Source: Myxococcota bacterium (GTDB lineage: Bacteria > Myxococcota_A > UBA796 > UBA2385). Taken from it: DNA of 64,000 bases. Position 1 is the first letter of the stretch; every line of letters starts with the position of its first letter. This document shows, one piece after another, positions 45,065-62,065 of this stretch. Position numbers and translations under genes: made by a program. Below the pieces are notes generated by a model. That model was not told the origin of the DNA and made no database searches. It saw only the letters and a program-made list of their open reading frames with translations. The stretch lies in the NCBI GenBank assembly GCA_044344255.1, contig JBIJDH010000015.1, positions 64,001-128,000 on the forward strand. The letters run 5' to 3'.

Positions 45065-46312
45065 ATGCAGTCCGAACGTCCAGGTCAGCTCTCCGGTGAC
45101 CGCTACCAGCTTGTCCGAACTCTCGGAATCGGCGGGATGGCGACGGTTTGGCTCGCGTGGGACCGCCGGTTCGACGTCCCTCGCGCGGTGAAGCTGCTAA
45201 ACCCCGCGCTCGTCGCGATCCCCGCTGCCCGCCAGCGCTTCGTGCGCGAGGCCCAGATCATGGCGCGGCTGCAGCACCCCCACGTGGTGGTGGTGCATGA
45301 CTACGGCGAGACAGCCGAGCAGGCCTGGATCGTCATGGAGCTGTTGGCGGGAGGGAGCCTCGAGGCGTGGGTGATCCGCAACGGCCCGCTCGAGCCCAGG
45401 CGCCTCTGCGAGGTGAGCCTCGGCCTGCTGGGCGCGCTCGCGGTCGCCCACGACGACAACGTCGTGCACCGTGACATCAAGCCGGCGAACCTGCTGATCG
45501 GCAGAGGCGGCGTGGTCAAGCTCGGAGACTTCGGCATCGCACGGCTGCTGCAGGGTGGCCAACCGCTCACCCGGCAGGGGGTCGGGATGGGCACCGAGAG
45601 CTTCATGGCGCCCGAGCAGGTGACCGACGCCAGCCATGTGGAGTTTCAGGCGGATATCTTTGGGTTCGGTGCCACGCTGTTCGCGCTCGCCACGGCTCGG
45701 GCCCCGGTCGGCGTCTACGGAGAGGAGCATCGCCAGCGCCTCGCCTTGATGCTGGCTCCCGGGATCCGGGAGGTCTTCCTGAAGGCGACGGCCTTCTCGG
45801 TTCGAGACCGCTACGCCACCGCCGCCGAGATGGCCTACGCGCTCTCCTTGGTCCTGGAGGGCCTGCCTCCCGATCGGACCCACCAGCCGGCGCTCGATGA
45901 CGTCTGTGTCTCGATGATGCGGCCCCCCAGCTTGGCGGCCGAGGTCCGCTCCCCGGCCGTCTCCCCCACGCTCCTCCCGCTCCCCTCGCCGGACTCCCGC
46001 ACGCACGACTCCCTGCTCATGGACGGCTTCGGCGAGGCGTCGGCCCGCGGCGTGGAGCCCCCCATCCGCCCGCCGCCGCGGTGGCCCTCGGGCGCGCCGA
46101 ACGGGCTCCACCCGCCCGTCAAGGGGCGGGCGCCGCACGGGGCGGCGTTGAACGCTGAGCTCGACGACGACTTCGAGAACAGCCTGACCGAGACCTTCCT
46201 TGCTGCCGACCGGCGGGCCGTCACCTACCGCAAGGTGGTCCTCGGCGTTTCGTTGATCGGCCTGATCCTTGCCGCTGCGGTCATCTTGCACACGTTCGCC
46301 GGTTCCCCCTGA
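45065..46312 (+). CDS. Serine/threonine protein kinase
   Basis: GIGGMA, AVK, HRDIKPAN, DFGIA, MAPEQ motifs; C-terminal TM segment. Confidence 0.92.
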   Translation: MQSERPGQLSGDRYQLVRTLGIGGMATVWLAWDRRFDVPRAVKLLNPALVAIPAARQRFVREAQIMARLQHPHVVVVHDYGETAEQAWIVMELLAGGSLEAWVIRNGPLEPRRLCEVSLGLLGALAVAHDDNVVHRDIKPANLLIGRGGVVKLGDFGIARLLQGGQPLTRQGVGMGTESFMAPEQVTDASHVEFQADIFGFGATLFALATARAPVGVYGEEHRQRLALMLAPGIREVFLKATAFSVRDRYATAAEMAYALSLVLEGLPPDRTHQPALDDVCVSMMRPPSLAAEVRSPAVSPTLLPLPSPDSRTHDSLLMDGFGEASARGVEPPIRPPPRWPSGAPNGLHPPVKGRAPHGAALNAELDDDFENSLTETFLAADRRAVTYRKVVLGVSLIGLILAAAVILHTFAGSP

Positions 46313-46323
46313 GCTCAGCTGGA

Positions 46324-47358
46324 ATGATGATGTCGACCCCTGTTGAACGTGTGTTGTTGGACTTCGCGGACGAGGGCGTCGCGGTCCGCGCCCTCTCGTC
46401 CACCTTTGGCGTCGAGCTCACCGGTCTACGGCTCGAGGAGCCTGCATCCGCCGCCCTGGTGGAGCGCCTCGTGACCCTGCTCGGAACGCGCCTGGTCGTG
46501 CTGATCCGCGGCGTCGAGATGTCGGAGGCCCGCCAGGACGCGCTCACCCGCGCCTTGGGTGCGCTCCGCGATCAAGGCCTGCACGCCTGGGCCCCGCCGG
46601 CAGACCCTGACGCAGCGGTGGGTCGCGATGGGGTGCTCGGTCCGCTCCACCTGCTCAACAAGGGCAACCTGCTGCTCTTCGTCAACGGGCCGGAGCTGTG
46701 CACGGGTGACCCCACCGCCGCCTACACCGAGGAGGAGGCTGAGCTGCGCGGAGGCACCTCCTGCTGGCACACGGGCGACACCGAGAAGGAGAACGTCGAG
46801 GTCATCAACATCCTGCACCCGGTGATCGTGCCGGAGCGCGGGGGCCAGACCCTCTTCCTCGACACGACGGCCGCCTTCGCCGACCTCGATCCCACCACCC
46901 AGGCGGCTCTCGAGGGCCTTCGGGTGCAGCACTTCACCCACTTCCCGCCCTCGACGCCCGAGTTTCGGATGCCAGACCCCACCTGGCCCGTGAACCAGCC
47001 GCTCGTCAAGCAGCACCCGCTCACTGGGGCGCGCTACCTGTACTTGAACTTCAATGACATGGACCGGGTGATCGGCCTCAGTCGGGCCGAGAGCGGCGCG
47101 CTGATCCGGCGCCTCTACGACCACGCCGTTCAGTCGCGCTACGTCTACGCCCACACCTGGACGGAGGGTGACCTCATCCTCTGGAACTGTAACGGCACCT
47201 TGCACAAGCGCGGCGTGCTCGATCCGAGCTGCAAACGAGCGCTCCGTCGCACCCAGACCGCGGTGCCGGCCTTGCAGAGCGTGCGCGAGTGGGATCACAC
47301 CCGGCAGGTGGAGAGCCACGACGGCGAGTCGTGGCACCCGTACCCCTTCCAGCGTTGA
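46324..47358 (+). CDS. TauD/TfdA-fold Fe(II)/2OG enzyme with HxG motif (candidate halogenase)
   Basis: FGVE..G, WHTG, P..GG.T.F.D, PLV..HP.TG, H.W..GD...W, distal H, R...R. Confidence 0.85.
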   Translation: MMMSTPVERVLLDFADEGVAVRALSSTFGVELTGLRLEEPASAALVERLVTLLGTRLVVLIRGVEMSEARQDALTRALGALRDQGLHAWAPPADPDAAVGRDGVLGPLHLLNKGNLLLFVNGPELCTGDPTAAYTEEEAELRGGTSCWHTGDTEKENVEVINILHPVIVPERGGQTLFLDTTAAFADLDPTTQAALEGLRVQHFTHFPPSTPEFRMPDPTWPVNQPLVKQHPLTGARYLYLNFNDMDRVIGLSRAESGALIRRLYDHAVQSRYVYAHTWTEGDLILWNCNGTLHKRGVLDPSCKRALRRTQTAVPALQSVREWDHTRQVESHDGESWHPYPFQR

Positions 47359-47362
47359 CCGA

Positions 47363-47557
47363 TCAGGTGGCTGGGGAGGTCGTCGCGGCGGTAGTGCCCG
47401 CGGGCGGAGCGACCGGCCGGAAGGCGTAGAGGCCCAGGAAGACGGGGATCGGCGTGAAGAAGAAGGCCACCACAAAGGTGAGGAAGAAGCCGAGACGGGT
47501 GTCTTTGGCGAGCAGGGCGGATACGATGCAGAGCAGGAGGTAAGACAGGAAGGACAT
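47363..47557 (-). CDS. Small two-TM membrane protein
   Basis: GGAG RBS; 64 aa, hydrophobic; co-oriented downstream of the DUF697 gene. Confidence 0.65.
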   Translation of the reverse strand: MSFLSYLLLCIVSALLAKDTRLGFFLTFVVAFFFTPIPVFLGLYAFRPVAPPAGTTAATTSPAT

Positions 47558-47623
47558 GTACAGTCTCCAATGTTCAGGGGTGGGGACGTAGGATCGCGGT
47601 GAGCTCAGGGAACAGCTCGTCGT

Positions 47624-48202
47624 TCAGGGCACAGCGGGCGCGGCCGGAGTCGGAGTCGAGGCGGGAGACGATGCCGGAGCGACCTCCGGCTTGAGCGAGT
47701 CTCGCACTTCGGACGCGCTCCGGACGACCTTGCTGTACTCTTCCTTGAAGAAGTGCTTGAGGCGCGCGGCGTCGAGGTCAAGGATCGTGCCGCCGCGCTC
47801 GAAGTGCTCGATGAAGACGTGGCCCACAGAGTGGGTGACCGCCGATGCGGCGATGGGCAGCGTCGTCCAGGCGGCCAGCGGGCCGGCGACCGGGATGAAC
47901 TTGAAGGCGCTGGCGACGAAGGCCGTGGCGACCGCCCCGCCGCCGAGGGTGCCGAGGAGGCTGAGGATCACCGAGCGGGCCGCGTGCTCGCTGAAGGGGA
48001 CCTTGTAGACGGCGCTGATCTCGGCCACCATCTTGAGCTGGACCCCGGTGATGGCGATGAGGTCAAACAGCGGGAGGGGGAGCACCCCCGCTGCGGCGGA
48101 CCACGCGAGGTTGGATCGGACGATGTCGGAGGCGCGGTCGCGCTTGGAGCGGGGGGCTGCGGCGTCGGCGGCGACGGCGGGCGTGGGCGCGGGTTCGGAC
48201 AT
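47624..48202 (-). CDS. DUF697 (YcjF-like) protein
   Basis: P.P..D...I..VQ.KM...I...Y.V.F; IP..G; T...G..FIEHFE.GG motifs. Confidence 0.82.
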   Translation of the reverse strand: MSEPAPTPAVAADAAAPRSKRDRASDIVRSNLAWSAAAGVLPLPLFDLIAITGVQLKMVAEISAVYKVPFSEHAARSVILSLLGTLGGGAVATAFVASAFKFIPVAGPLAAWTTLPIAASAVTHSVGHVFIEHFERGGTILDLDAARLKHFFKEEYSKVVRSASEVRDSLKPEVAPASSPASTPTPAAPAVP

Positions 48203-48277
48203 GAGCGGACCTCCGGGGCGGGGTGTAGAGGCTCAGATCGACACCGATCGCGAAAGCGAGCATCTACAGACGCAGCG

Positions 48278-48306
48278 AAGCTACCACAGGTCACCGGCCC
48301 CCTCAA
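48278..48306 (-). promoter_or_regulatory. Possible sigma70 promoter with extended -10
   Basis: TTGAGG-N17-TAGCTT with TG.-TAGCTT upstream of the DUF697 gene. Confidence 0.4.
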
Positions 48307-48331
48307 GGTCCATCCTGGGCCCTCGCCGGTG

Positions 48332-49240
48332 TCACCGAGCTCCCAATGGGGCGATGGGAGGCGGCTCGGCGTGCGCCCGGAGCGCGTCCACGATGATGCG
48401 GCACACATCGCTCCACGTTGGCTGCAGCGTCATCCGGAAGTGCTCGGTCTCGACGCCGACTCGGCGCACGTCATCGTGCAGGAGCCCGTTCCAGCCCGAG
48501 ATCGGAGACGGATCCTTCATCCAGATCCGAGGGAGGCGGAGCGGGTTCTCCTCGCTGACGAAGCCCTGGGTGTTGTGGATGAACAGAGTGGGGATGTGTG
48601 AAGCCTGCGGGGTCGGATGGTATCGGCCCATCATCTGCGCGTGGTGGGCCATCCCGTCCAAGCTCTGGCGGAGGTGCCGGGAGAGCAGCTCGGGTGCGTG
48701 AGGGATGTCCGAGCGGGCCTTGAGTTGACGGACTGCGGCCTCGATCTGGCCGTCCACCGAGAGCTCCATCAGCTCGCCGGGGCCGAGGGGCTCGCGCAGA
48801 CCGAAGGGGAGCCCGATCAGGTTGGTGGCGAGCTGCACGAGGGTGCCGTTGCTGGCCCAGCGGGGGAGCGCGCGGATGGGCGGGCTGGACGGCGCGTAGG
48901 CGTCGAGGAGCAGGAGCTCGGCCGGCGCGAGGCCGCGGCGGGCCGCCTGTTGGGCCATCTCGAAGGCGATGATCCCGCCGAAGGAGTAGCCGAGGAGCAG
49001 CCAGGGTCGATCCTCCGCGACCGGGAGGGCGGCGTCGAGGTAGGCGGCCGCCATCTCCTCGACCCGTGAGTAGGGCGGCCCGGGGTGCGTGAAGCCCGGC
49101 GCGGCGAAGCCGAAGACGGCGTGCCGAGGGGCGAGGGCCGCGGCCAGCGGCGGCAGCCACGTGAGCTCGCCCGCCATGCTGTGGACCGCGAAGAGGGGCG
49201 GGCCCCGGCCCTCCCGACGGATGGGGACGAGGTGGCTCAC
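48332..49240 (-). CDS. Stand-alone PKS/NRPS-type thioesterase
   Basis: GTG start overlaps the AT-ER stop (GTGA); PLFAVH..AG, GYSFGG, LLD and EHF motifs. Confidence 0.85.
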   Translation of the reverse strand: MSHLVPIRREGRGPPLFAVHSMAGELTWLPPLAAALAPRHAVFGFAAPGFTHPGPPYSRVEEMAAAYLDAALPVAEDRPWLLLGYSFGGIIAFEMAQQAARRGLAPAELLLLDAYAPSSPPIRALPRWASNGTLVQLATNLIGLPFGLREPLGPGELMELSVDGQIEAAVRQLKARSDIPHAPELLSRHLRQSLDGMAHHAQMMGRYHPTPQASHIPTLFIHNTQGFVSEENPLRLPRIWMKDPSPISGWNGLLHDDVRRVGVETEHFRMTLQPTWSDVCRIIVDALRAHAEPPPIAPLGAR

Positions 49241-51477
49241 GCGTCCGCTTCCCAGAGCCCGCCGAAGCGGCGGCTGAGGTGCTCGGCGGCCCCCTCGATC
49301 AGCCAGACGGCGAGCGTGTCGGCGTGGCGAGCGCGCCAAGGCTGGAGCGGACCGCCTAGGACCACCTGGTTGAAGGCGCCGAGCGCCGGCCCGCAGTGGA
49401 TCTGAAAGTCCACCTGGTGCGCCGCCTCCCCCGCGAGGGCCCACTCGGTGCTGTATCGGAAGTACCGCTTGAAGATGAGGGCCATCCGGTGCTTCGGCAC
49501 CCGCTCGGCTCGGGCGAGGGCCTCGACGGACAAGCCTCGTCGCACCTCCTCGTAGACCGCCTCGAAGGAGCGGTGGAGGTAGCGGTCTTGGATCTGGCGG
49601 CGGGTACCGGCGTCGATCTCCTCGATGGCGCCGTGCTGCTGGTAGAGAGACAGCAGCTTCTTGGCCCGGGCGGGGAAGAAGGTGCCCTTTCGGAGCACCT
49701 GGATCTTCGCCCCCATCTCGAAGAGGGCCCCCGAGGGGGCGTGATCGGTGTCTTGGACGTCCATCCCCTCGAGCATGTCCTTGACCAGCGCGCTCGTGCC
49801 GGCCTCGACCGTGCACTGGTTGATCGAGCCCGTGAGGATGAAGTCGGCGCCGAGCACGAAGGCGGCGGCGGCGCCCTCGGGGGTGCCGATCCCGCCGGCC
49901 GCCCCGACGAAGACGGGCGGGGCCGCCGGGCGAGCCGCGGCGAGGCGGTCGCGGAGCTGGAGCACCGAGGGGATGAGGGAGAGCGGCATACCCTGGTCGG
50001 TGTGGCCGCCGGAGTCGGACTCGACGCAGAGGGCGTCGGCCATCGGGATCCGGGCGAGGAGCGCGGCGGCCTCGGCGGTGATGAGGCCGGCCTGGCGGAG
50101 CTTCCCGACGATCCGCTCTGGAGCCGGGCTCAGGAAGTGTACGGCGACGTCCGGGCGGGAGACCTTGGCCAGGACGCGGTGCTCGGCCACCACCGCGCCG
50201 CCCGGCCCCTCGCGCAGGCCTGCCGCCCGATAGCGCACGAGGGCGGGGGTCACCTCCATGAAGGCGGAGGCCTCGATCGTGCGCACCCCCTCGCGCAGGA
50301 GCAGGTCGCAGAGCGCGTCTTCGGCCTCGGGGCGCTCCGCGTGGGCGATGAAGTTGACGCCGTAGGGCGCCCCCTCGGGGAGCTGGGACTGGATCGTGCG
50401 GACGGCCGCCTCCACCTCGGAGAGGGGGAGCCCGCCGGCGCCGAAGAAGGCGAGGAGGCCCGCCCGCGCCATCCGCACGACGAGGGCTGTCGAGGCGATC
50501 CCCCGGTACATGCCCCCGGCCAGCACGGGGAGGCGGAGGCCGAAGCGCTCGCAGAAGGCCCGTGATCCGAGGTGCTCGGCGCGGATGCCACGGCGAGGCC
50601 GTGGGGGCGGCGCGAGGGGGCCGGCCTCTCGCTCGGTGGCTACCACCATCGCCTTGAGGATCGGCCGCTTCCCGGAGCCCACCTCGATGAAGTCGGCGGC
50701 GCGCAGGCCCTGGGAGAGCAGGTAGCGGACGCTCTCGCTCCACCGCACCGGGGCGGAGATCTGCTCCACCATCCGTCGGGCGAGGTCGGCGTCCTGGTGG
50801 GGGCGGGCGGTGACGTTGCAGATCACCGGGATCTGGAGGGCAGACCAGCGCACCGTCGCGGCGAGCTCGCCGAAGGCGGCCTGGGCCTGCGCCATCCGCG
50901 GGGAGTGGAAGGCGGCGCTGACCGTCAGGTGGACGAAGCCGGTCGCGCCTGCGGCCCGGAAGGCCCCCTCGGCGGCGACCACCGCCGCGCGCTCGCCGGA
51001 GATCACGATCTGGCGCGGCGCGTTGTAATTGGCGGCGTACACCGGCCCGATCTCTGGGCCCCGGAGCACGGCCTCCACTGCGGCCGCGTCGAGCCCGATC
51101 ACCGCCGCCATCCCGCCGCCGTCGGCCTCCCCCATCCGGGCGCCCCGGGCGGCGACGAGGCGGAGCCCGGTCTCGAGGTCGATCGCTCCGGCGGCGAGCA
51201 GCGCGTTGTACTCGCCGACGCTGTGGCCCATCAAGAAGTCGGGCGCAGGCTCCTGCTCGCGCCACCGCAGGTAAGCGAGCGCGTTGCAGAGGAAGATCGC
51301 GGGCTGGGTGTGGCGAGTCTCTGTGAGGGTGGACAGGGGCCCCTGTTCACAGAGCGCGCGGATCGGGTAGCCGAGGACCCGGCTCGCGAGCTCCACCTCG
51401 GCGGGGAAGGCGTCGAAGAGCTCGGCGCCCATGCCGACATGCTGGGAGCCCTGCCCGGGGAAGATGACTGCGCGCAT
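49237..51477 (-). CDS. trans-acting malonyl acyltransferase fused to a PfaD-type enoyl reductase (AT-ER, PksE-like)
   Basis: FPGQGSQ, GHSVG, AFHS; GGMYRGIAS, EASAFM, DSGGHTD, GAAGGIG motifs. Confidence 0.93.
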   Translation of the reverse strand: MRAVIFPGQGSQHVGMGAELFDAFPAEVELASRVLGYPIRALCEQGPLSTLTETRHTQPAIFLCNALAYLRWREQEPAPDFLMGHSVGEYNALLAAGAIDLETGLRLVAARGARMGEADGGGMAAVIGLDAAAVEAVLRGPEIGPVYAANYNAPRQIVISGERAAVVAAEGAFRAAGATGFVHLTVSAAFHSPRMAQAQAAFGELAATVRWSALQIPVICNVTARPHQDADLARRMVEQISAPVRWSESVRYLLSQGLRAADFIEVGSGKRPILKAMVVATEREAGPLAPPPRPRRGIRAEHLGSRAFCERFGLRLPVLAGGMYRGIASTALVVRMARAGLLAFFGAGGLPLSEVEAAVRTIQSQLPEGAPYGVNFIAHAERPEAEDALCDLLLREGVRTIEASAFMEVTPALVRYRAAGLREGPGGAVVAEHRVLAKVSRPDVAVHFLSPAPERIVGKLRQAGLITAEAAALLARIPMADALCVESDSGGHTDQGMPLSLIPSVLQLRDRLAAARPAAPPVFVGAAGGIGTPEGAAAAFVLGADFILTGSINQCTVEAGTSALVKDMLEGMDVQDTDHAPSGALFEMGAKIQVLRKGTFFPARAKKLLSLYQQHGAIEEIDAGTRRQIQDRYLHRSFEAVYEEVRRGLSVEALARAERVPKHRMALIFKRYFRYSTEWALAGEAAHQVDFQIHCGPALGAFNQVVLGGPLQPWRARHADTLAVWLIEGAAEHLSRRFGGLWEADA

Positions 51478-51507
51478 GGCCGAAGCCCCTCGTCCTGGTG
51501 GGTCTGC

Positions 51508-53181
51508 CTAATTGCCCATGGGGTCGGGCACGAGCTCGCCGCCGGCCTTCTCCCAGGCGACGGAGCCGAGATCGAGGCGGATGACCCGATCGGCCACATG
51601 CCAGTACCGATCATCGTGGGTCACCGCGAGGACGGTGCCGCCGCGGGCCTTGATCATCGGCAGGATGGAGAAGTAGAAGAACTCTCGGAATTCCTGGTCT
51701 TGCTCGGCCGGCCACTCGTCGAAGACGGTGATCGGGCGGTCTTCGAGCAGGGTGGTGATGAGCGCGAGCCGCTTCTTCTGACCGGTCGACAGCTTGATGT
51801 CGGAGAAACGACCGTCTACGTAGCGCACCTTGTGGGAGAGGCGCATGGTCTCGATGAGCTCGGTGACCCGCGCGGGATCGACCCCCCGCAGGCCGTAGAG
51901 GCGGTCAAAGAGGTGGAAGTCGGTGAAGATGGCGCTGTACAGCTCGCGCAGGCCAGCGAGCGCCGCGCCCTCCACCGGGGCGCCGTCGATGCAGATGCGG
52001 CCTGCCTCGTGCGGGTAGAGGCCGGTCATCATGCGCAGCGAGGTTGACTTGCCGGCGCCGTTGCCGCCGACGAGGAAGAGGATCTCGCCCCGGCGCAGGT
52101 TCACGTGGAGGGGGCCGGCGGTGAAGGTGACCCGGCCCGTGGTGTCGCGGTAGCTCGTCTGGAGGCCCTCGAAGCGGATCTCCTGAAAGCCCTGGAACTG
52201 GGCGGACAGCGCTCGGGCCTCCGCGGGCGCGACCCCGCCGGCGGCCTCCAAGCGAGCGAGGGCGGCCTCGAGGCCGCTCACCCCGACGTTGGCGCGGAGG
52301 ATCAGGGGGACGGCGCCCACAAACTTGAACAGGGGCCCCATCGCGAGCAGGAGCGCTGGAGTGAGCGCGAGGATGATGTGATTGTGACCGGTGACGAAGG
52401 TGGGGAACAGGAAGACCACCACCCCGAGCATGTAGTAGGTGAGGAAGCTGGTCATCATCACGATGGCCACCCAGCGCTCGCCGAAGCGGGAGGTCCAGCG
52501 CTCCGCCTCCGCCGAGGCGCCCTGGAAGGCCTCGAACACACCGTCGCTGCGGGCCGCGCTCAGGCGGAGCTCCACCGCGCCCTCAACGATGTCGCCGATA
52601 CGATCGAGCATCCGCGCCTGCCGCTCGTTCACCTCCCAGAGGGTGGCCATGAGCCGCTCCCCGTTGCGGAGATAGATCACGATCCCCACGGCGGTGACCG
52701 CGACGAAGAGGGCCGCGGCGGCGGGAGAGAGGACGGTGATGTAGGCGAGGGAGGCCCCGAGCACCGCCGCTTGCGCCACACAGTCGACGAGCACCGGGAA
52801 GACCATCGAGAGGTGGTTCGTCTCCTGCGAGATCAGGGTGTAGAGCTCGCCGCGATCGAGGTCCTCGATGGTCTTGAGCTCGGAGCGGCGGATGCGCTCG
52901 ACGATCTCCAAGCGCACCTCCCGAAGCTGGGACTCGATCACCGTGTTGGCCCGCAGCAGGGCGGCGCGGTTGCAGGTCAAGAAGACGCCGAAGGCCGCGA
53001 GGAAGCCGATGGCGGCGCTCCAGTCGGGGTGAGCGCCGTCGGCCACGGCCTCGGCCACGGCGTTGACCACGATGAGCAGCGCGGTCGTGGCGAGGCCGGA
53101 GGCGGCGCTCAACAGCCCCATGATCTGGAGGTCCCGCGCCGGGATCCGCCGGATGAAGCGCAGCAGGGGCTGGGGGTTCAT
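51508..53181 (-). CDS. SyrD/PvdE/YojI-type cyclic peptide export ABC transporter
   Basis: TM domain plus GGNGAGKS, FTDFHLF, LSTGQKKRLA and FDEW. Confidence 0.92.
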   Translation of the reverse strand: MNPQPLLRFIRRIPARDLQIMGLLSAASGLATTALLIVVNAVAEAVADGAHPDWSAAIGFLAAFGVFLTCNRAALLRANTVIESQLREVRLEIVERIRRSELKTIEDLDRGELYTLISQETNHLSMVFPVLVDCVAQAAVLGASLAYITVLSPAAAALFVAVTAVGIVIYLRNGERLMATLWEVNERQARMLDRIGDIVEGAVELRLSAARSDGVFEAFQGASAEAERWTSRFGERWVAIVMMTSFLTYYMLGVVVFLFPTFVTGHNHIILALTPALLLAMGPLFKFVGAVPLILRANVGVSGLEAALARLEAAGGVAPAEARALSAQFQGFQEIRFEGLQTSYRDTTGRVTFTAGPLHVNLRRGEILFLVGGNGAGKSTSLRMMTGLYPHEAGRICIDGAPVEGAALAGLRELYSAIFTDFHLFDRLYGLRGVDPARVTELIETMRLSHKVRYVDGRFSDIKLSTGQKKRLALITTLLEDRPITVFDEWPAEQDQEFREFFYFSILPMIKARGGTVLAVTHDDRYWHVADRVIRLDLGSVAWEKAGGELVPDPMGN

Positions 53182-54833
53182 CGGGGGGCCTCCGGCGCGG
53201 GCGGCGGCGGCGCCGCGGCGACGATAGTGCCGAGGTCGAGGCGGATCACCCGATCACAACAGTGGAAGTACCGATCGTCGTGAGTGACCACCACCACGGT
53301 CTTGCCGCGGGCCTTGAGCTCTGGCAGGAGCTCGGTGTAGAAGACCTCCCGGAAGCGCCGCTCCTGGTCGGCGGCCCACTCGTCGAAGATGAGGATCTCC
53401 CTATCCTCGAGCAGGTTTACCACCATCGCCAGCCGCTTCCGTTGTCCCGTAGACAGGCGTTGGGTGGAGAAACGTCCGTCCAGGTACTCCACCTTCTCGT
53501 CGAGCTCCATGCGCCGGAGGAGGCCGCGGACGCGCTCTGGATCGACGCCCTCGAGGCCGTAGAGGCGGTCGAACAGGCGGAAGTCCGTGAAGATCGCCGA
53601 GAACAGCTCCCGGTACGCAGGGCGGCTCTCCTGGCTCACGCTGCGGCCGTCCACCCGGATGTCGCCCGCCTCGGGGCGGTACAGACCACAGAGGAGCTTC
53701 AAGGCGGTCGACTTTCCACAGCCATTGCCGCCCAGCATGAAGACGAGCTCGCCGCGGTGGAGGCTGAGGTCCCAGGGGCCGCTGGTGAAGGCGGCCTGGC
53801 CCTGGGCGTCGCGGTAGCGGAAGAGGATGCCCTCGCAGCGGATCGACTGAAAGCCGGTGAACGACAGGATCGGCGGTGAGCCGTCGGCCTCGGGCCGGAG
53901 GGGCGGGTCGAGGAGGTCGGCGAGGCGCATGACCTGATCGAGGCCGATGCGGGCCTTCGTGAAGATGGGGGCCACCGCGGTGATGGTGCCCACGGGGGCC
54001 ACGCAGAAGAAGGCGGCCGCGGTGAGCTTGTAGATGATGTCGGTGTAAGAGTCGAAGAAGAGCGGGAGGATGAAGGTGACGGCGCCCAGCAGGAGGTAGA
54101 GGAAGGCGCTCGAGAACATCAGCAGCAGCACCCAGGTCTCGCCGATCCCTACGACGAGCTCGCGGAGGCGGGTCACCACGCGATCGAAGTGCGCTTGCAG
54201 GCCGTCGCTGCGATCGGCGTTCAGGCGGAGCTCCTGGAAGCCCTCCAGGAAGTGGATGAGGGTCTCGAGCGTCTCGCCTTCGGTCTGGGTCACCGTGGTC
54301 ATCTGCTCGATCAGCGCCCGCCGCTTGGCCCAGAAGGCGAGCAGGGCCAGCGCGGTGACCCCGCCCACCACGACAAAGGAGACAAACGAGAGCGTCGCGA
54401 CGTAGGCGAGGCAGAAGCAGAGCAGGAAGGCGGCCTGGGCGGCGGTGACCAGCAGGGGGAAGCTCTGGGAGAGGTGGTTCGTCTCCTGGGCGACCTTGGT
54501 GTACACCTCGCCGCGGCCGAGGCCCTCGAGGGTGCGGAGCTCGGCGCGGCGGATCTTGTCGGCGAGCTGGAGCCTCAGCTCGCCGAGCCGGGCCTCGAGG
54601 AAGTCGTTGGCGCGGAGCAGGGCCGTCCGCTGGGCGACGTAGTAGGCGCCCAGCGCGATGAGGAAGAGGAGGACGGAGTCGGCCTCGGCCTCCAGGCCCT
54701 TCGCCGAGCTCGCCGCCACCGCGTTGATGAGGCCGATGAGCGCCGCGTTGGCGAGGCCGGCCAGGCCCGCGATGAGGACGATCGACCGGAGCTCGCGGAG
54801 ATTATTGGGGACGAGGAGGCGGAGGAGCTGCAC
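53178..54833 (-). CDS. SyrD/PvdE/YojI-type cyclic peptide export ABC transporter (paralog)
   Basis: GGNGCGKS, LSTGQRKRLA, FDEWAADQ and THDD.YF motifs. Confidence 0.92.
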   Translation of the reverse strand: MQLLRLLVPNNLRELRSIVLIAGLAGLANAALIGLINAVAASSAKGLEAEADSVLLFLIALGAYYVAQRTALLRANDFLEARLGELRLQLADKIRRAELRTLEGLGRGEVYTKVAQETNHLSQSFPLLVTAAQAAFLLCFCLAYVATLSFVSFVVVGGVTALALLAFWAKRRALIEQMTTVTQTEGETLETLIHFLEGFQELRLNADRSDGLQAHFDRVVTRLRELVVGIGETWVLLLMFSSAFLYLLLGAVTFILPLFFDSYTDIIYKLTAAAFFCVAPVGTITAVAPIFTKARIGLDQVMRLADLLDPPLRPEADGSPPILSFTGFQSIRCEGILFRYRDAQGQAAFTSGPWDLSLHRGELVFMLGGNGCGKSTALKLLCGLYRPEAGDIRVDGRSVSQESRPAYRELFSAIFTDFRLFDRLYGLEGVDPERVRGLLRRMELDEKVEYLDGRFSTQRLSTGQRKRLAMVVNLLEDREILIFDEWAADQERRFREVFYTELLPELKARGKTVVVVTHDDRYFHCCDRVIRLDLGTIVAAAPPPPAPEAPR

Positions 54834-55845
54834 CGTTCCCTCGGGAGGTCGGGGGGGGCGTGGGCGCCGCGGTGGGGGCGGCGCTCGACGAGGGCTCGAC
54901 CGGGGGGACGGGGCTCGTCGGCGAGCTCTGCGGCGCGGCCGGCAGCGGTGGCGGCAGGGTTGCGGGCAGCGTTGCCGGTAAGGGGCTGTTGGGCTCCGTG
55001 TTGAGGATGATCGGGAGCTGGCCCGCGTCGGTCCCCATCAAGACGATCTTGGTGTTCTGCGACTTGGCGAGCTCGATGGTGGCGGCGATGCCTCGCCACT
55101 TGAGGGGGTCGATGCCGGAGATCTCGTGAAAGCGGGAAAGGCCGCCGGCCTCGATGATCTTGCGGTTCGCCTCGGCCTGCTCGGCTTGGACTCGAAACTC
55201 GTACGACTGGAAGGTCTGCTGTTCGATCAGCTTCTGGACGATCGCCTGCTCCATCAGCGGCGGGAGCGTGAGCTCCATGATCTGCACGGACAGGAGCTCG
55301 ACGGGGGCCTCCGAGAGGCGGTTGATCACGTCTCCGGAGATCTGCGCGAGGAGGCCCGCTTCGTCCTGGGCGTAGATCTCGTCTGCGCGGTAGTTCCCGA
55401 TCACCTCGCGGAGCGAGGACACCACCTCGGGGATGATCAGCCGCTCCGCGTAGTCGGGGCCGACGGTGCGGTGGAGCTCCGGCAGGCGGGCCGCCTGGGG
55501 GCGGTAGCGGATGTACCAGTGCACATCGAGGTTGAGCCCGTCGGTGGTGAGCAGGACGGTCTCGTCGCGGATGGCGTGCTCGCGCACGTCGTAGATGGTG
55601 ATGGTGTCCCAGGGGAGCTTGAGGAAGGTGCCCTCTGAGATCTCCCAGTCCACGGTGCCGCCGAAGAAGCGGCTCCAGTACACGCCTTGCTGCCCCGGGA
55701 AGATGGGGATGAAGATCGACTTCCAGAAGAAGATCACGATGAAGCTGATGATGAGGCCGATCAGCGTGATCTCGCTGCGATGCAGATCGACCCACCGCTG
55801 GAGGGCGCTCCGCGTCGGCGGCGGGGTGGACGGGGAGGGTGGCAT
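54802..55845 (-). CDS. SPFH/prohibitin family membrane protein
   Basis: N-terminal TM; I.PG..GV, EG.....PW, Y....I.P.V.S..R and LP.....AI..K motifs. Confidence 0.88.
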   Translation of the reverse strand: MPPSPSTPPPTRSALQRWVDLHRSEITLIGLIISFIVIFFWKSIFIPIFPGQQGVYWSRFFGGTVDWEISEGTFLKLPWDTITIYDVREHAIRDETVLLTTDGLNLDVHWYIRYRPQAARLPELHRTVGPDYAERLIIPEVVSSLREVIGNYRADEIYAQDEAGLLAQISGDVINRLSEAPVELLSVQIMELTLPPLMEQAIVQKLIEQQTFQSYEFRVQAEQAEANRKIIEAGGLSRFHEISGIDPLKWRGIAATIELAKSQNTKIVLMGTDAGQLPIILNTEPNSPLPATLPATLPPPLPAAPQSSPTSPVPPVEPSSSAAPTAAPTPPPTSRGNGAAPPPPRPQ

Positions 55846-56056
55846 TCCGGATGTGCCCTGCGAGGAGGGCGCATCCTGTCACCAAGCGCCGATCATGTCA
55901 CCCCCTCCCCGGCCCCTGGCGGGCGCATTTGCGCCAGGGCGGCCTCCGTGCGATGGTGCGGCCACTGTGCGGTCCGGTCGCGCCGCGCCGAATCGAGCAG
56001 GTGGACCGGATGGGGCCTCCGACGCCTGCTCGGTCCCGTCCAGATGGAGATTGAAG

Positions 56057-56338
<282 letters not shown>

Positions 56339-56366
56339 GCCGGCGCGAGCGGAGGAGTCGGAGCCG

Positions 56367-58343
56367 ATGTGCGGGATCGCTGGCCTCTTCACCCACGGCG
56401 CGGACCCCGGCGCGACGCCGTCTGTCCTTCGGGCCATGCTCGGCCGCATCGCCCACCGCGGCCCCGACGCCGCCGGGCTCTATGTCGACGACCGCTTCGG
56501 GATGGGCACCGCGCGGCTCAGCATCATCGACGTCGCCGCGGGCGCCCAGCCGATGGCAGACGCCGCCGAGCGCGCATGGATCGCCTACAACGGTGAGCTC
56601 TACAACTACGTCGAGCTCCGCGCCGAGCTCGAGGCCCTGGGGTGCAGCTTCCGCACCCGCTCCGACACCGAGGTCGTGCTCCAGGCCTGGCTGCGCTGGG
56701 GAGCGGCGGGGCTCCCGCGCCTGAACGGTGGCTTCGTCTTTGCGATCTACGAGCCCGCCAGCGAGCGGCTCGTCGTCGTGCGCGATCGGTTCGGCAAGCG
56801 CCCGCTCTTCTACGCCGAGGGGCCGCACGGCCTCCTCTTCGCCTCCGAGATGAAGGCCTTCTTGGCGGTGCCGGGCTTTCGTTTCGAGCGGGATCCGGCG
56901 CAGGTCGCCGCCATCCTCGGGCAGTGGACGCCCTTGCCCGACCAGTCTGGCTTTCAGGGCCTCCACAGCCTGCCGATGGGCGAGTGGCTGGAGGTCGCGG
57001 GCGGCCGTGTCCAGACCCGGCCTTACGAGGCCCTCCGCTTCGACACCGAGCCCCCGCCCGCGACCGAAGCGGCGGCTCGCCAGGCCATCCGCGCCGCCCT
57101 CGAGCAGAGCGTGGCCCTGCGCCTGCGGAGTGACGTCGAGGTCGGGGTCTATCTGAGCGGGGGCCTGGACTCTGCGGTCATCGCCGCGCTGGCCAGTCGC
57201 CTGTCCGGGCACCCGCTGCGCACCTTCTCGGTGGAGTTTGAAGACCGCCACTTCGACGAGTCGGCCGAGCAGCGGCTCGTGGCGGGCTCCCTCGGCACCC
57301 GGCATGAGGCGCTGCGCGTCCGCGACGCCGACATCACCGACGCCTTTCCGGACGCGGTCTATCACGCCGAGGTGCCGGCCTTCCGCAGCGCCTTCGTCCC
57401 GATGTACCTGCTCTCGCGTCGGGTGCGGGAGGCCGGGATCAAGGTGGTGCTCACCGGCGAGGGCGCCGACGAGGCCTTCCTCGGCTACGACATCTTCCGA
57501 GAGACCCGCCTCCGCGCGGAGTGGCCGGGCCTGAGCCCGGAGGAGCGCAGCCAGCGGAGCGCCGCCCTCCATACCTACCTGCCGCACTTCGAGGCGGGCG
57601 GGGCGGCGGCCGCGGGGCTCTATCAGCAATTCTCTGTCGAGCGGATGCCCGGGCTCTTCTCGCACGAGCTCCGCTTCCAGAACGGCCGCTTCTGCGCCCG
57701 GCTCTTGAAGGACAAGCTGGACCCCTTCGCGGCGCTCCAGCGGGCGGTGGCCGCCGCCCCGGGCTACGCCGAGCTGCCGCCTGTCCAAAAGGCGCAGTGG
57801 CTCGAGTTCCGAACCCTGCTCGCCGGCTATCTGCTCTCTACCCAGGGGGAGCGGATGAGCCTCGCCCACAGCGTGGAGAACCGCTGCCCCTTCCTCGATC
57901 CAGGTGTAGTGGGCATCGCCGCCGCCACCAATTGGCGCTTCGACGACGGCGCGGTGGAGAAGCGGCTGCTGCGAGAGGCCTTTCGCGGTGATCTCCCCGC
58001 CAGCATCATCGACCGCAAGAAGCACCCCTACCGTGCTCCCGACAGCGCCGCCTTCGTCCGCGCCGCGCCGGCCTACCTCGAGGCCCTGTGCTCGGAGGCC
58101 GAGCTCAAGAAGCTCGACTACCTCAACCCCACCTTCGCCCTCGCGCTGGTCCACAAGATCCGGACCTCGCCGCCGGAGCGGATCAGCACCAAGGAGAACC
58201 AGGCCTTCATCTTCCTGCTCTCGCTCGTGCTGCTCGACGCCGTCTATGTCCGGGGCGAGGGGCTCCCCGCGCTTCACCCGGCGGCGGGGGCCGCCCCGAG
58301 CCCGTTCATCGACCGCCGCAGCCGCTCCCCCGCTTCATCGTAG
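56367..58343 (+). CDS. asnB: Asparagine-synthetase-like glutamine amidotransferase
   Basis: MCGI, HRGPD, RLSIID, NGE.YN, SDTEV, LSGGLDS, GEGADE and R.PFLD motifs. Confidence 0.93.
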   Translation: MCGIAGLFTHGADPGATPSVLRAMLGRIAHRGPDAAGLYVDDRFGMGTARLSIIDVAAGAQPMADAAERAWIAYNGELYNYVELRAELEALGCSFRTRSDTEVVLQAWLRWGAAGLPRLNGGFVFAIYEPASERLVVVRDRFGKRPLFYAEGPHGLLFASEMKAFLAVPGFRFERDPAQVAAILGQWTPLPDQSGFQGLHSLPMGEWLEVAGGRVQTRPYEALRFDTEPPPATEAAARQAIRAALEQSVALRLRSDVEVGVYLSGGLDSAVIAALASRLSGHPLRTFSVEFEDRHFDESAEQRLVAGSLGTRHEALRVRDADITDAFPDAVYHAEVPAFRSAFVPMYLLSRRVREAGIKVVLTGEGADEAFLGYDIFRETRLRAEWPGLSPEERSQRSAALHTYLPHFEAGGAAAAGLYQQFSVERMPGLFSHELRFQNGRFCARLLKDKLDPFAALQRAVAAAPGYAELPPVQKAQWLEFRTLLAGYLLSTQGERMSLAHSVENRCPFLDPGVVGIAAATNWRFDDGAVEKRLLREAFRGDLPASIIDRKKHPYRAPDSAAFVRAAPAYLEALCSEAELKKLDYLNPTFALALVHKIRTSPPERISTKENQAFIFLLSLVLLDAVYVRGEGLPALHPAAGAAPSPFIDRRSRSPASS

Positions 58344-59389
58344 AGGAAGGGCAGGCTGCAGAGGCGGCGGCCGCGGGTGACGGGATCGACGGCGTGCAGG
58401 AGGGCGCAGGAGAAGACGAGCGCCGCCCCCTGGGGGGCGCGGTATCGAGCGGGGCCGTGCTCGGGGAAGCTCACGTCGCCGCCGTCGTAGTCGTCGGGCC
58501 CGACGCTGATCGAGCAGGCGAAGCGGCGGTGGGCCGTGCGCTGGCTCTGGTTGTCGCGGTGGGCGCCGAACCAGCCCTGGTCTTCCGCCTCGTAGGCGGC
58601 GAGCAGGTAGCGCTCCACCTCCGTGGCCTCAAATTGGAAGGCGAGGGCGACGGCGGGGATGACCCGCTGGACGACCGCGGCGTGCACGGCGGCGCGGAGC
58701 AGGGGCTCGGTGATGAGCAGGTCGCGGCGCCGCTTCCGGGCGCCGTCCACCACCATCCGCGCGCCGCCGTCGGCGAGGTTCTCCATCACGCCGGTGGGCT
58801 CGGGGCGCCCGGCCTCCCAGTAGCGGATGAGGTCTGCGCAGAGCGCCGGCTCGAGCACCCTCGGCAGCAGGAGGACCGGCGCCAGGCCGACGGGCGCGCA
58901 GAACGCGGGGGGCGCCGCGAGGCGACGGAGCACCGCGGCCACCTCGGCGGCGTGGGTGGCGGGGTGGGTGATCGGCAGGCGGGCGACCGCTCGCAGCGCG
59001 GCGTCGAAGACCCAGGTGACCGCGACGAGGCGGGTGGGGGCGCCCGCCACGGCGACGAAGAGCCCGAGCGCCTCGCCGAGCCGCCGGTCGAGGTCGAGGA
59101 TGAGCTGGCGCCCGGGCCGATCGGGCGGGGCGCGGCCTGGGGCGGCGTCGGCGGGATCCTGGCTCACCAGAAAGAGCCGCGCGGCCTGCCCGTCGAAGAG
59201 CTCGGCCTCCGCTTCGAAGCCGCGCAGCAGCGCCCCCACCGCGGGGTGTCCGACGGAGCCCGGACAGCTGAAGGCGACCGGCCGCCCCGCGGCGCCCGAC
59301 AGGGCGAAGGGCTGGCCCCCCGCGGCCTGGACGATCAGCCAGGGCAGCGGATCGCCAGGAGCCCGCACGGCAGCGTCCATCCTTGACAT
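58274..59389 (-). CDS. 2OG-Fe(II) oxygenase with degenerate peroxiredoxin-like N-terminal domain
   Basis: APVL..PRVLE..LC, KRRRD, HRDN, HRRFA, GG...FPE and FSC.LLH motifs. Confidence 0.85.
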   Translation of the reverse strand: MSRMDAAVRAPGDPLPWLIVQAAGGQPFALSGAAGRPVAFSCPGSVGHPAVGALLRGFEAEAELFDGQAARLFLVSQDPADAAPGRAPPDRPGRQLILDLDRRLGEALGLFVAVAGAPTRLVAVTWVFDAALRAVARLPITHPATHAAEVAAVLRRLAAPPAFCAPVGLAPVLLLPRVLEPALCADLIRYWEAGRPEPTGVMENLADGGARMVVDGARKRRRDLLITEPLLRAAVHAAVVQRVIPAVALAFQFEATEVERYLLAAYEAEDQGWFGAHRDNQSQRTAHRRFACSISVGPDDYDGGDVSFPEHGPARYRAPQGAALVFSCALLHAVDPVTRGRRLCSLPFLYDEAGERLRRSMNGLGAAPAAG

Positions 59390-59508
59390 CGGCGCACCTC
59401 CGGCGGACCACCCTATCCTCGGCCGGGCTCCGCACCCCTCGGCCGGTGACGGGCTACCTTGAGACCCGCTTCGATCGCAGCGATCGCCCGCGCGGCCCCG
59501 AGGTGACC

Positions 59509-62035
59509 ATGCCCCTGCCCCCCCCTTGGTGGAGCCGCCCCACGGCGGAGCTGGTCGCCGGGCTCTCCACGCCGAGGGGCCTCGATCCCGCCGAGGCCGC
59601 CGCCCGGCTCCGGCGAGACGGCCCCAACCGCGTCGTCGATCGCGCCGAGCGGAGCGCCTGGCGGGCCCTCTTCGCCCAGCTCGGCAACCCGCTCGTGCTG
59701 CTGCTGATCGTCGCCGCGCTGATCTCGCTCGCGGTGGGCGAGTGGGTGGACGCCGCGATCGTGCTCACCATCGTCTTCGTGAGCGCCGGGGTGGAGTGGT
59801 GGCAGGAGCGGCGGGCCGGAGAGGCCCTCGGCCGCCTCCGCGCGCGGGTCACCGTGCTCACCACGGTCGAGCGCGGCGGGGCGGCGCTCCAGGTGCCCGC
59901 CGAGGCGGTCGTGCGGGGTGACGTCGTGCGCCTGTCGGCCGGGAGCCTGATCCCCGCCGACGGCGTGGTGCTCGAGGCCCGCGACTTCTTCGTCAATCAG
60001 GCCAGCCTCACCGGAGAGACCTTCCCCGTCGAGAAGACCGCCGCGCCCTCACCGGCTGACGCCGCCCTCTCCGCCCGCACGAACGCGGTCTACCTCGGCA
60101 CGAACGTGCGCAGCGGCTCGGCGCGGATGCTCGTCGTCGAGACCGGCCGCGCCACGGTCTTCGGCGACATCGCGGCCCGCCTCGCCACCCCGACCGAGGA
60201 GACCGACTTCGAGCGGGGCCTCCGCGACTTCGGGCGCCTGCTCACCCAGGCGATGGCGGTCCTCGTCCTGCTCGTCTTCGCGGTCCACCTCTGGCTCGGC
60301 CGGCCCCTCGTCGACGGGCTCCTCTTCGCGATCGCGCTGGCGGTGGGCATCGCGCCCGAGCTCCTCCCCGCCGTGCTGCTCGTCAACCTCTCGCGCGGGG
60401 CGGAGCGGATGGCCGCGGCCGGGGTCATCGTGCGGCGCCTCGCCGCCATCGAAGACATCGGCAGCATGGACGTGCTGTGCACCGACAAGACGGGCACCCT
60501 CACCGTCGGCACCGTGCACCTGCAGGACGCGCTCGACCCCGAGGGCGCGGCCTCCCCCGAGGTCCTCCGCCTCGCCATCGTCAACGCCCGCTTGCAGACC
60601 GGCCTCGAGAACCCCCTCGACCTCGCCCTCTCCGCGCAGGATCCCGACGGGCCCCTCCCCGAGAAGATCGGCGAGATCCCCTACGACTTCCTCCGTAAGC
60701 GGCTCACCGTGGTGGTGCGGCGCGAAGACGGCGCGGCCGAGCTCATCACCAAGGGGGCCCTCGAGTCGGTCCTGTCCGTCTGCGCCTTCATCGACAGCCC
60801 GACCGGCTTTGTCCGCCTCGACGAGGCCGGCCGCGCCGCGCTCCACGCGCGCCTCGTCGACTGGAGCGCCGAGGGGTCGCGGGTGCTCGGGGTCGCCCGC
60901 GGCACCGTGAAGGACCGCGGGCGATACAGCCGCGCCGACGAGGCCGACCTCATCTTCATGGGCTTCCTCCGCTTCGAAGACCCGCTCAAGGAGGGGGGTG
61001 CGCGAGGCCATCGGCGCCCTCGCCGCGCTGGGGGTCGGCCTGAAGGTCATCACCGGAGACAACCGATACGCCGCCGAGCACCTCCGAAAGGCCCTGTCCC
61101 TGCCCGAGGCCCCGGTGCTCACCGGTCACGACCTCCTCCAGATGTCCGACGAGGCCCTCGGCCACCACGTCGAGGCCACGCAGGTCTTCGCCGAGGTCGA
61201 TCCCAATCAGAAGGAGCGCATCATCCGCGCCCTCCAGCGGCGCAGCCACGTCGTGGGCTACCTCGGCGACGGCATCAACGACGCGCCGGCCCTGCACGCC
61301 GCCGACGTGGGCCTCTCGGTAGAGGGGGCGGTCGACGTGGCCAAGGAGGCCGCCGACTTCGTCCTCCTGTCGCCTGACCTCGACGTGCTGCGCGCGGGTG
61401 TGATCCAAGGGCGGACCACCTTCGCCAACACGATGAAATACGTGATGACCACCGAGTCTGCCAATCTCGGAAATATGCTCTCGATGGCGGCGGCGTCCTG
61501 GTTCTTGCCCTTCCTGCCCTTGCTCGCCAAGCAGATCCTCCTCAACAATTTCCTGTCCGACTTTCCGGCGATGGCGATGGCCTCGGACACCGTAGACGAG
61601 GAGCTCATTCGCCGCCCCCAGCGTTGGGATGTGGCCGGCATTCGTCGTTTCATGATCTTCTTCGGGCTCATCTCCTCGGTCTTTGACGGCCTCACCTTCT
61701 TCGTGCTGCTCCACGTCGCCCGCGCGAGCGAGGTGGGCTTCCGCACCGCCTGGTTCGTCGAGTCACTCCTCTCGGAGCTGGCGGTGGCCCTCGTCATCCG
61801 CACCCGCCGCCGCGCCTGGCAGAGCCGCCCCGGCAAGGCCCTCTGGTGGAGCTCGGTCGTCGTCGCCGCCGTGGCCATCGCGCTCCCCTACCTGCCCGGC
61901 GCCGACCGCCTCGGCTTCGCCCCGATGCCCCCGGCCCTGCTCGCGACCGTCCTCGGGGTCACGGCCGCCTACGTGGTCACCGTCGAGGTGGGCAAGGTGG
62001 TGTTCTACCGTTGGCTGTTCGTGGACCGGCCCTGA
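59509..62035 (+). pseudogene. mgtA: Magnesium-translocating P-type ATPase, frameshifted near 60993-60998
   Basis: TGE, PELLP, DKTGTLT and KGA lie in one frame; TGD, GDGINDAP and N.GNM.SM lie in another. The break is in a G6 run within DPLKE-GV. Confidence 0.85.
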
Positions 62036-62065
62036 CGCCCAGAGACCCGGACGGATAGCGCTGGT

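Follow-up and report, generated by a model that had tools for sequence, protein, structure and literature searches.

A SecA-type TauD-fold enzyme with an HxG iron site at the edge of a sesbanimide-type cluster: a predicted glutarimide chlorinase of an uncultured freshwater bacterium

SecA of Pseudomonas syringae DSM 1242 is the chlorinase of secimide, annotated as a 2,4-D dioxygenase of the TauD/TfdA family and carrying an HXG motif (PMC12171316; what is said here of SecA follows the accessible parts of that paper). Its gene adjoins the trans-AT cluster for secimide, which is a glutarimide (PMC7930024, in the searchable part of whose supplement we found no entry for SecA). Secimide A accumulates in a secA knockout and is converted to its 3-chloro congener in E. 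coli carrying secA, the substrate being free secimide A, and NMR of the chlorinated compound shows the methine that bears the chlorine to be a neighbour of C-4 within the imide ring. The model of SecA fits AtsK (1OIK) at about 1 Å, the rmsd against the halogenases SyrB2, WelO5, BesD and AdeV being 7.9-20 Å, and SecA sequences share 90-100% identity within P. syringae, falling below 45% outside that species (PMC12171316). It is worth emphasizing that, while HxG or HxA is regarded as the signature of a halogenase (PMC13519999, PMC10947486, accessible text of both), calls made from such a short motif produce false positives (PMC13519999), and that the motif is insufficient as proof because human AspH, with HXG...H, hydroxylates its substrate (PMC10947486).

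The window, by which we mean the whole stretch of 64,000 nucleotides analysed here, holds a reading frame for a protein of 344 amino acids, gene-like in its GC content by codon position, whose only Pfam match is TauD (PF02668; E 1e-38, 134 bits against a curated cut-off of 27). This gene and the cluster that it accompanies comprise the following features, positions being those of the window unless the contig is named:

46324..47358, forward strand: SecA-type TauD-fold Fe(II)/2-oxoglutarate enzyme with an HxG motif, predicted glutarimide chlorinase (from Pfam, fold, identity to the P. syringae protein P0176 and clade tree)
46768..46779, forward strand: codons of H149-T150-G151-D152, with Gly at the carboxylate-ligand position (from the sequence and alignments)
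47624..48202, reverse strand: DUF697 protein, with which the converging accessory operon ends; the cluster of genome G160 has one too
48332..49240, reverse strand: stand-alone (type II) thioesterase with GYSFG, start codon inferred
49237..51477, reverse strand: trans-acyltransferase fused to a PfaD-type enoyl reductase (AT-ER), SbnN-like
51508..53181, reverse strand: ABC exporter resembling cyclic-peptide exporters
53178..54833, reverse strand: second ABC exporter
54802..55845, reverse strand: SPFH/Band 7 protein, with a counterpart in the G160 cluster
56051..56338, forward strand: stand-alone ACP resembling the SbnK loading ACP, start approximate (weak PP-binding match; 46-48% to the amidotransferase-adjacent ACP in genomes G042 and G160)
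56367..58343, forward strand: asparagine-synthetase-type amidotransferase, SbnJ-like
contig positions 133342-138300: ECH, KS, ACP, HMG-CoA synthase and P450, after about 11 kb of unrelated genes

The metal site of the 344-residue protein reads H149-T-G151...H294, which is the HxG/A...H motif of Fe/2OG radical halogenases; the canonical HxD/E...H facial triad is absent, Gly151 occupying the position of the Asp with the spacing unchanged. In pairwise alignments with solved dioxygenases of the RdpA/AAD type, Gly151 falls on the Asp ligand in a segment without gaps. The codon of His149 starts at 46768, and the distal His294, Arg305 and Arg309 are all present; Thr176 and Arg305 presumably bind 2-oxoglutarate as they do in TauD. 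Gly151 is not a sequencing error, because the identical protein is found on 12 contigs from four source collections and the motif codons are unchanged in contigs from three of the four sequencing runs compared; together with conservation in the clade described below, this rules out a private mutation as well.

The gene begins 11 bp downstream of that of an unrelated kinase and is oriented away from the accessory operon; a search for promoter-like sites gave none. Between it and the DUF697 gene lies a hydrophobic reading frame of 64 codons (47363-47557, reverse strand), possibly a small membrane protein. The DNA datasets that hold the window sequence are all lake or freshwater metagenomes, and among the listed datasets holding window DNA there was no RNA dataset.

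A first homologue search retained 13 proteins among the 7999 candidates scored; twelve of them, of 46-98% identity, were aligned with the query (P0013, at 29%, was left out), and WHTGDTEK is invariant in all 13 aligned sequences. In a profile search that does not rely on a word index, three representatives scored 337-564 bits, after which the scores dropped to 151 (best 150 of 9901), and a search with P0014, the most distant member, brought in seven more. The final set comprises the query and 19 others, a near-duplicate (P0001) and a fragment (P0012) being left out. As the pattern used in the locus searches contained HTGDT, and was blind to members with HxD or HTGDS, the motif counts given here are taken from the protein searches.

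Position 151 is Gly in 18 and Ala in two of the 20 clade members, never Asp or Glu, to be set against 146 Asp, one Ala and one Glu in 148 outgroup proteins. His149 and Thr176 delimit 28 residues in every clade member and in 135 of the 148 outgroup proteins, a spacing that rules out a one-residue insertion by which Asp152 would become the ligand. Thr176 is kept throughout the clade and in 146 of the outgroup proteins, Arg305 in all proteins of both sets. Asp152 is conserved in 19 of 20 members, P0180 having Asn; Glu154 and Glu159 are found in all 20 and are absent from those columns in the whole outgroup; altogether fifteen clade-specific positions are kept in 19-20 of the members. The 20 HxG/A proteins, P0176 included, are monophyletic to the exclusion of HxD proteins (FastTree support 0.998, tree rooted on one outgroup protein). 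Descent of the clade from HxDD proteins was considered and is unsupported, the nearest sisters being mostly HxDL. Outside the clade a single TauD-family sequence, P0107, has Ala at the ligand position and a one-residue gap nearby, reflecting either a decayed gene or a separate origin of HxA.

Members of the clade are scarce among the sampled genomes: further ones were absent from 40 relatives, from 400 genomes of the window genome's own phylum and from 400 of the phylum of G042, while one (G160) was found among 120 other genomes of the order of G042; in a search of 405 plasmid records the best 8 rows included no close match. Its hosts are plant-associated Pseudomonas, Kordiimonadales, an uncultured lake bacterium, and bins of Myxococcaceae and Thermoanaerobaculia.

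The earlier note on this DNA had read HxG in place of HxD, without gaps and with the His codon at 46768, and had taken the distal His and the 2-oxoglutarate-binding Arg to be intact; the alignments to solved dioxygenases bear this out, with H294 and R305 in place. It had proposed to look for HxG in homologues, where Gly or Ala is indeed found in all 20 clade members and HxD in none, and had allowed for a sequencing error or private mutation, an alternative that the 12 identical contigs dispose of, and for iron binding through the next Asp, against which stand the Asn of P0180 and the presence of the same Asp in the family of P0176.

P0176, which matches the window protein at 143 of 324 positions (44% identity, E 6e-96), heads a 57-member sequence cluster from P. 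syringae; the 15 members listed are 97.6-100% identical and all carry WHTGDSEA. Judging from accessions, host, annotation and identity ranges, as far as the accessible parts of PMC12171316 give them, this is very likely the SecA family. Table S26 of that paper, a list of SecA relatives in 967 rows, opens with HEX6100182.1 (P0178), HSP78630.1 (P0015), MBL4837432.1 (P0174) and WP_194215035.1 (P0006, from Kordiimonas pumila), all of them clade members, and the next 28 rows are WP_ accessions, four of which belong to the P0176 cluster. In a table of this length the listing is weak by itself, yet we infer that its head is SecA's own branch. If the P0176 cluster is the SecA family, then Asp152, Glu154 and Glu159, all present in P0176, occur in a working chlorinase; the Asp that follows Gly151 is compatible with halogenation, since the P. 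syringae family is also HTGD. The loop after His203 is about 10 residues longer in the window protein than in P0176, and longer also in the sesbanimide-type members.

Metal-free AlphaFold models of the window protein (mean pLDDT 79 and 88) find their top fold matches exclusively in the TauD family, the superposition on AtsK (1oik) giving Z 25.8 and an rmsd of 2.1 Å over 247 residues; none of the 50 rows of this comparison names a halogenase. The earlier note had called the enzyme a TauD-type halogenase after the example of SyrB2, WelO5 and BesD: the SecA clade supports the halogenase, but the closest precedent is SecA and not those three.

The polyketide cassette that had been noticed beside the gene is indeed part of a glutarimide trans-AT cluster, of the sesbanimide type, but the window holds its accessory arm only, with the thioesterase, AT-ER, two ABC transporters, ACP and amidotransferase; the megasynthases lie 10-53 kb beyond the window end on the same contig. 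Amidotransferases like SbnJ provide the malonamyl starter of glutarimides (PMC8262917, accessible text). After the P450 come, in contig order, a PKS/NRPS frame (7113 codons), a flavin monooxygenase, a PKS (6812 residues), a PPTase and a carboxylesterase (contig 181680-183620), with which the cluster ends. The modules of the first PKS are KS-DH-KR-ACP, KS-(B)-ACP, KS-KR-ACP, KS-MT-ACP, KS-ECH-ACP-ACP and KS; those of the second megasynthase are ACP, KS-DH-KR-ACP, KS-DH-ACP, KS-DH-ACP, KS-KR-ACP, KS-ACP and C-A-PCP-TE. The stretch between the second KS and its ACP matches residues 561-804 of RhiE, beyond the KS of that protein (E 5e-13), a DH-bearing module scoring higher. Both megasynthase frames are free of internal stops and keep their KS, ACP, KR, DH and TE motifs. 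Several marks of an sbn line are found: loading by amidotransferase and ACP, a KS-B-ACP second module, the order PKS/Baeyer-Villiger monooxygenase/PKS-NRPS, a fifth module with ECH and tandem ACPs, and a terminal C-A-PCP-TE. This is the layout given for SbnO, SbnP and SbnQ in the accessible descriptions (PMC8262917; 10.1101/2020.09.18.303172), and by gene content and domain order the contig encodes a sesbanimide-type trans-AT line.

The genes between the amidotransferase and the beta-branching cassette (58274-64000 and contig 128001-133341) are unrelated, with an oxygenase, a cation ATPase, and helicase-like and Schlafen/Fic-like genes; in G042 and G160, unlike the window genome, amidotransferase and beta-branching genes are adjacent. 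The oxygenase (58274-59389, reverse strand) is a second 2OG-Fe(II) enzyme with an ordinary HRD motif, which converges on the amidotransferase; its NCBIfam matches are below cut-off, and the fetched regions of G042 and G160 contain no match to it. The P-type cation ATPase (59383-62035, forward strand) lies in two overlapping frames (59383-61377 and 60998-62035), probably through a frameshift. The janustatin pathway (PMC11755721, accessible text) was considered as a context for the locus and is unrelated.

In sequencing run X11 a single contig of 12,085 bases spans 46255-58364, from the HxG gene to the amidotransferase, at a depth of 18 where the upstream flank has 31-32; a short contig departs from the window sequence after 46312, and contig ends are identical in run X13 of the same study. 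In both runs the block is covered at lower depth than its flanks, a hint, within one study, that the HxG gene moves together with the cluster rather than with the kinase. Contig depth does not measure the fraction of cells, but possibly only some members of the population carry the cluster. No indel is seen in the HxG gene among the strain variants of two runs. The summed contig depth over 55674-56340 is several-fold above that of the neighbours in all four runs, which may reflect a repeated or conserved short element within the ACP gene or close to it.

The two megasynthases align colinearly with those of G042 and G160, at about 41-46% identity over most of their length; the second one of G160 (C1:1200058-1217877), of about 5,900 residues, is less alike towards its end, which suggests that a module is missing or altered there. 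At L001 and L002 (Kordiimonadales), L007, L009 and in G160 the HxG gene is flanked by an amide C-N hydrolase on one side and by P450/beta-branching genes on the other, and AT-ER, PPTase, metallophosphoesterase and amidotransferase lie nearby. The linear amide C-N hydrolase comes directly before it at L001:8811-9863, L002:8858-9907, L007:8808-9932 and L009:8838-9929. Replacement of the sbnD methyltransferase by the HxG gene is rejected because L007 has both. The earlier note had suggested that homologue neighbourhoods be checked, and a sesbanimide-type cluster is found at all six clade loci with long flanks (those of L008 and L010 are too short to score); five of the six share their gene order, so that they are closely related, not independent, and represent roughly one event. 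The related clusters include a metallophosphoesterase, an acyl hydrolase and an amide hydrolase that are missing from the window cluster; its carboxylesterase, and their amide C-N hydrolase, could shorten the product at its ester or amino-acid tail.

We can therefore understand the enzyme as, probably, a late-stage chlorinase of glutarimide C-3 that would act on the released sesbanimide-type product and make a chlorosesbanimide, this prediction following from the presence of a 44% relative of the likely SecA family at the edge of a sesbanimide-type cluster. Gly151 would leave the iron site open and chloride would fill it, Fe(II) being held, if the chemistry is that of Fe/2OG halogenases, by two histidines, 2-oxoglutarate and chloride. 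Dioxygen would then give a chloro-ferryl species, which would take a hydrogen from the carbon adjoining the imide carbonyl (C-3), and chlorine would rebound. By analogy, the substrate would be the released product or a hydrolysed short form of it, and the clade-specific Asp152, Glu154 and Glu159 would shape the substrate pocket instead of binding iron. An identity of 44% leaves room for an altered site, and the gene stands at the edge of a cluster that is split. The earlier proposal that the adjacent trans-AT/glutarimide product is chlorinated is thus supported as a prediction, none of the three results that it had named as contrary (iron bound by the next Asp, HxD in the close homologues, an enzyme that only hydroxylates) having been obtained.

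A radical halogenase that acts elsewhere, be it at a side chain, at the lipid tail or, in the manner of SyrB2, on an intermediate still bound to its carrier, is a rather unlikely alternative. It would fit the longer loop after His203, the different side chains of sesbanimide and secimide (from the accessible descriptions) and the place of the HxG gene directly before the P450 and beta-branching genes in five loci, but what the two pathways have in common is the glutarimide ring, SecA acts on free secimide in E. coli (PMC12171316), and the fifteen clade-specific positions are conserved. We consider it unlikely that the enzyme is a hydroxylase or other oxidase, with two His as ligands as in AspH or with Asp152, Glu154 or Glu159 added, which in the making of sesbanimide A would, for instance, hydroxylate C7 or close the ring. 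These two steps, hydroxylation and cyclisation, have no assigned enzyme in the accessible text of the sbn paper (10.1101/2020.09.18.303172), AspH hydroxylates with the same motif (PMC10947486), the freshwater sources presumably hold little chloride, and the three acidic residues are conserved in 19, 20 and 20 members, respectively. Yet these residues are found also in P0176, of a family that is very likely chlorinating, the first of them is Asn in P0180, and a Gly/Ala exchange that admits neither Asp nor Glu fits a halide site; furthermore, the accessible main text on the sesbanimide A producer, in which the word TauD has no occurrence, describes no such gene.

That the enzyme or the cluster would be inactive in this host, as a relic that is carried along, or the protein a non-catalytic binding protein, seems very unlikely: unrelated genes do interrupt the cluster and three hydrolytic genes of its relatives are missing, but the megasynthase frames are open with their motifs kept, the metal and 2-oxoglutarate positions are all intact, and the strain variants leave the HxG frame without indels. 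The late-stage glutarimide chlorinase remains our preferred reading. On balance, and with less assurance, we lean towards seeing the SecA clade as a portable glutarimide-ring chlorinase that moved between unrelated assembly lines and hosts, giving 3-chloro-sesbanimides here and a broad late-stage chlorination of glutarimides.

The kind of enzyme is already published with SecA, four clade members figuring in the accession list of the SecA paper (PMC12171316, accessible part), so that a TauD-fold halogenase is not new; SecA is the only one characterised in the searchable literature. In the literature searched, mostly without subscription papers, we found neither a chlorinated sesbanimide nor a link between SecA homologues and sbn clusters: 'sesbanimide' has no occurrence in the accessible main text of the SecA paper, nor 'chlor' or 'halogen' in that of a 2025 glutarimide review (PMC12710063). 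SecA is now placed in a small, sharply bounded clade with a natural exchange of Gly and Ala, a second branch of which is tied to sesbanimide-type clusters. A specific class of compounds is predicted, recognisable by its chlorine isotope pattern; the clade homologues are material for understanding how the TauD scaffold turned into a halogenase, and selective C-H chlorination adjoining the imide carbonyl would be useful on glutarimide scaffolds.

How this locus relates to known systems may be put as follows. With the sbn clusters of Stappia indica PHM037, Labrenzia aggregata PHM038 and Magnetospirillum gryphiswaldense, compared through their accessible descriptions (10.1101/2020.09.18.303172; PMC8262917), the window cluster shares the SbnO-like PKS, Baeyer-Villiger monooxygenase, SbnQ-like PKS/NRPS, amidotransferase and ACP, as well as the HMGS-ACP-KS-ECH cassette, P450, trans-AT, ABC exporters and PPTase. 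It adds the HxG enzyme, type II thioesterase and carboxylesterase, no halogenase being named in the accessible main texts on the sbn clusters, and it differs in having no FkbM methyltransferase inside and in its interruption by unrelated genes over about 11 kb.

With TauD, AtsK, RdpA and TfdA (PF02668) the window protein has in common the fold, the two His, and the positions of Thr and Arg, at 18-27% identity; it differs by Gly for the Asp ligand, by NCN where those enzymes have DNR ahead of the distal His, and by an extended C-terminus. SyrB2, WelO5, BesD and AdeV have a like metal site, HxG/A...H, and by inference a like chloro-ferryl chemistry, in other sequence families, and none of the four is among the 27 solved sequences matched by the window protein. 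In BesD and SyrB2, too, the Gly or Ala is followed by Asp; we found no passage on this in two BesD preprints and do not use it as an argument. From SecA (PMC12171316, accessible text) the window enzyme differs in that its line is of the sesbanimide type and not that of the migrastatin-like secimide, in the longer loop after His203, in its uncultured freshwater host and in that its activity is predicted; the two share the TauD/TfdA annotation, the AtsK-like fold, the HxG motif and a glutarimide trans-AT PKS as neighbour.
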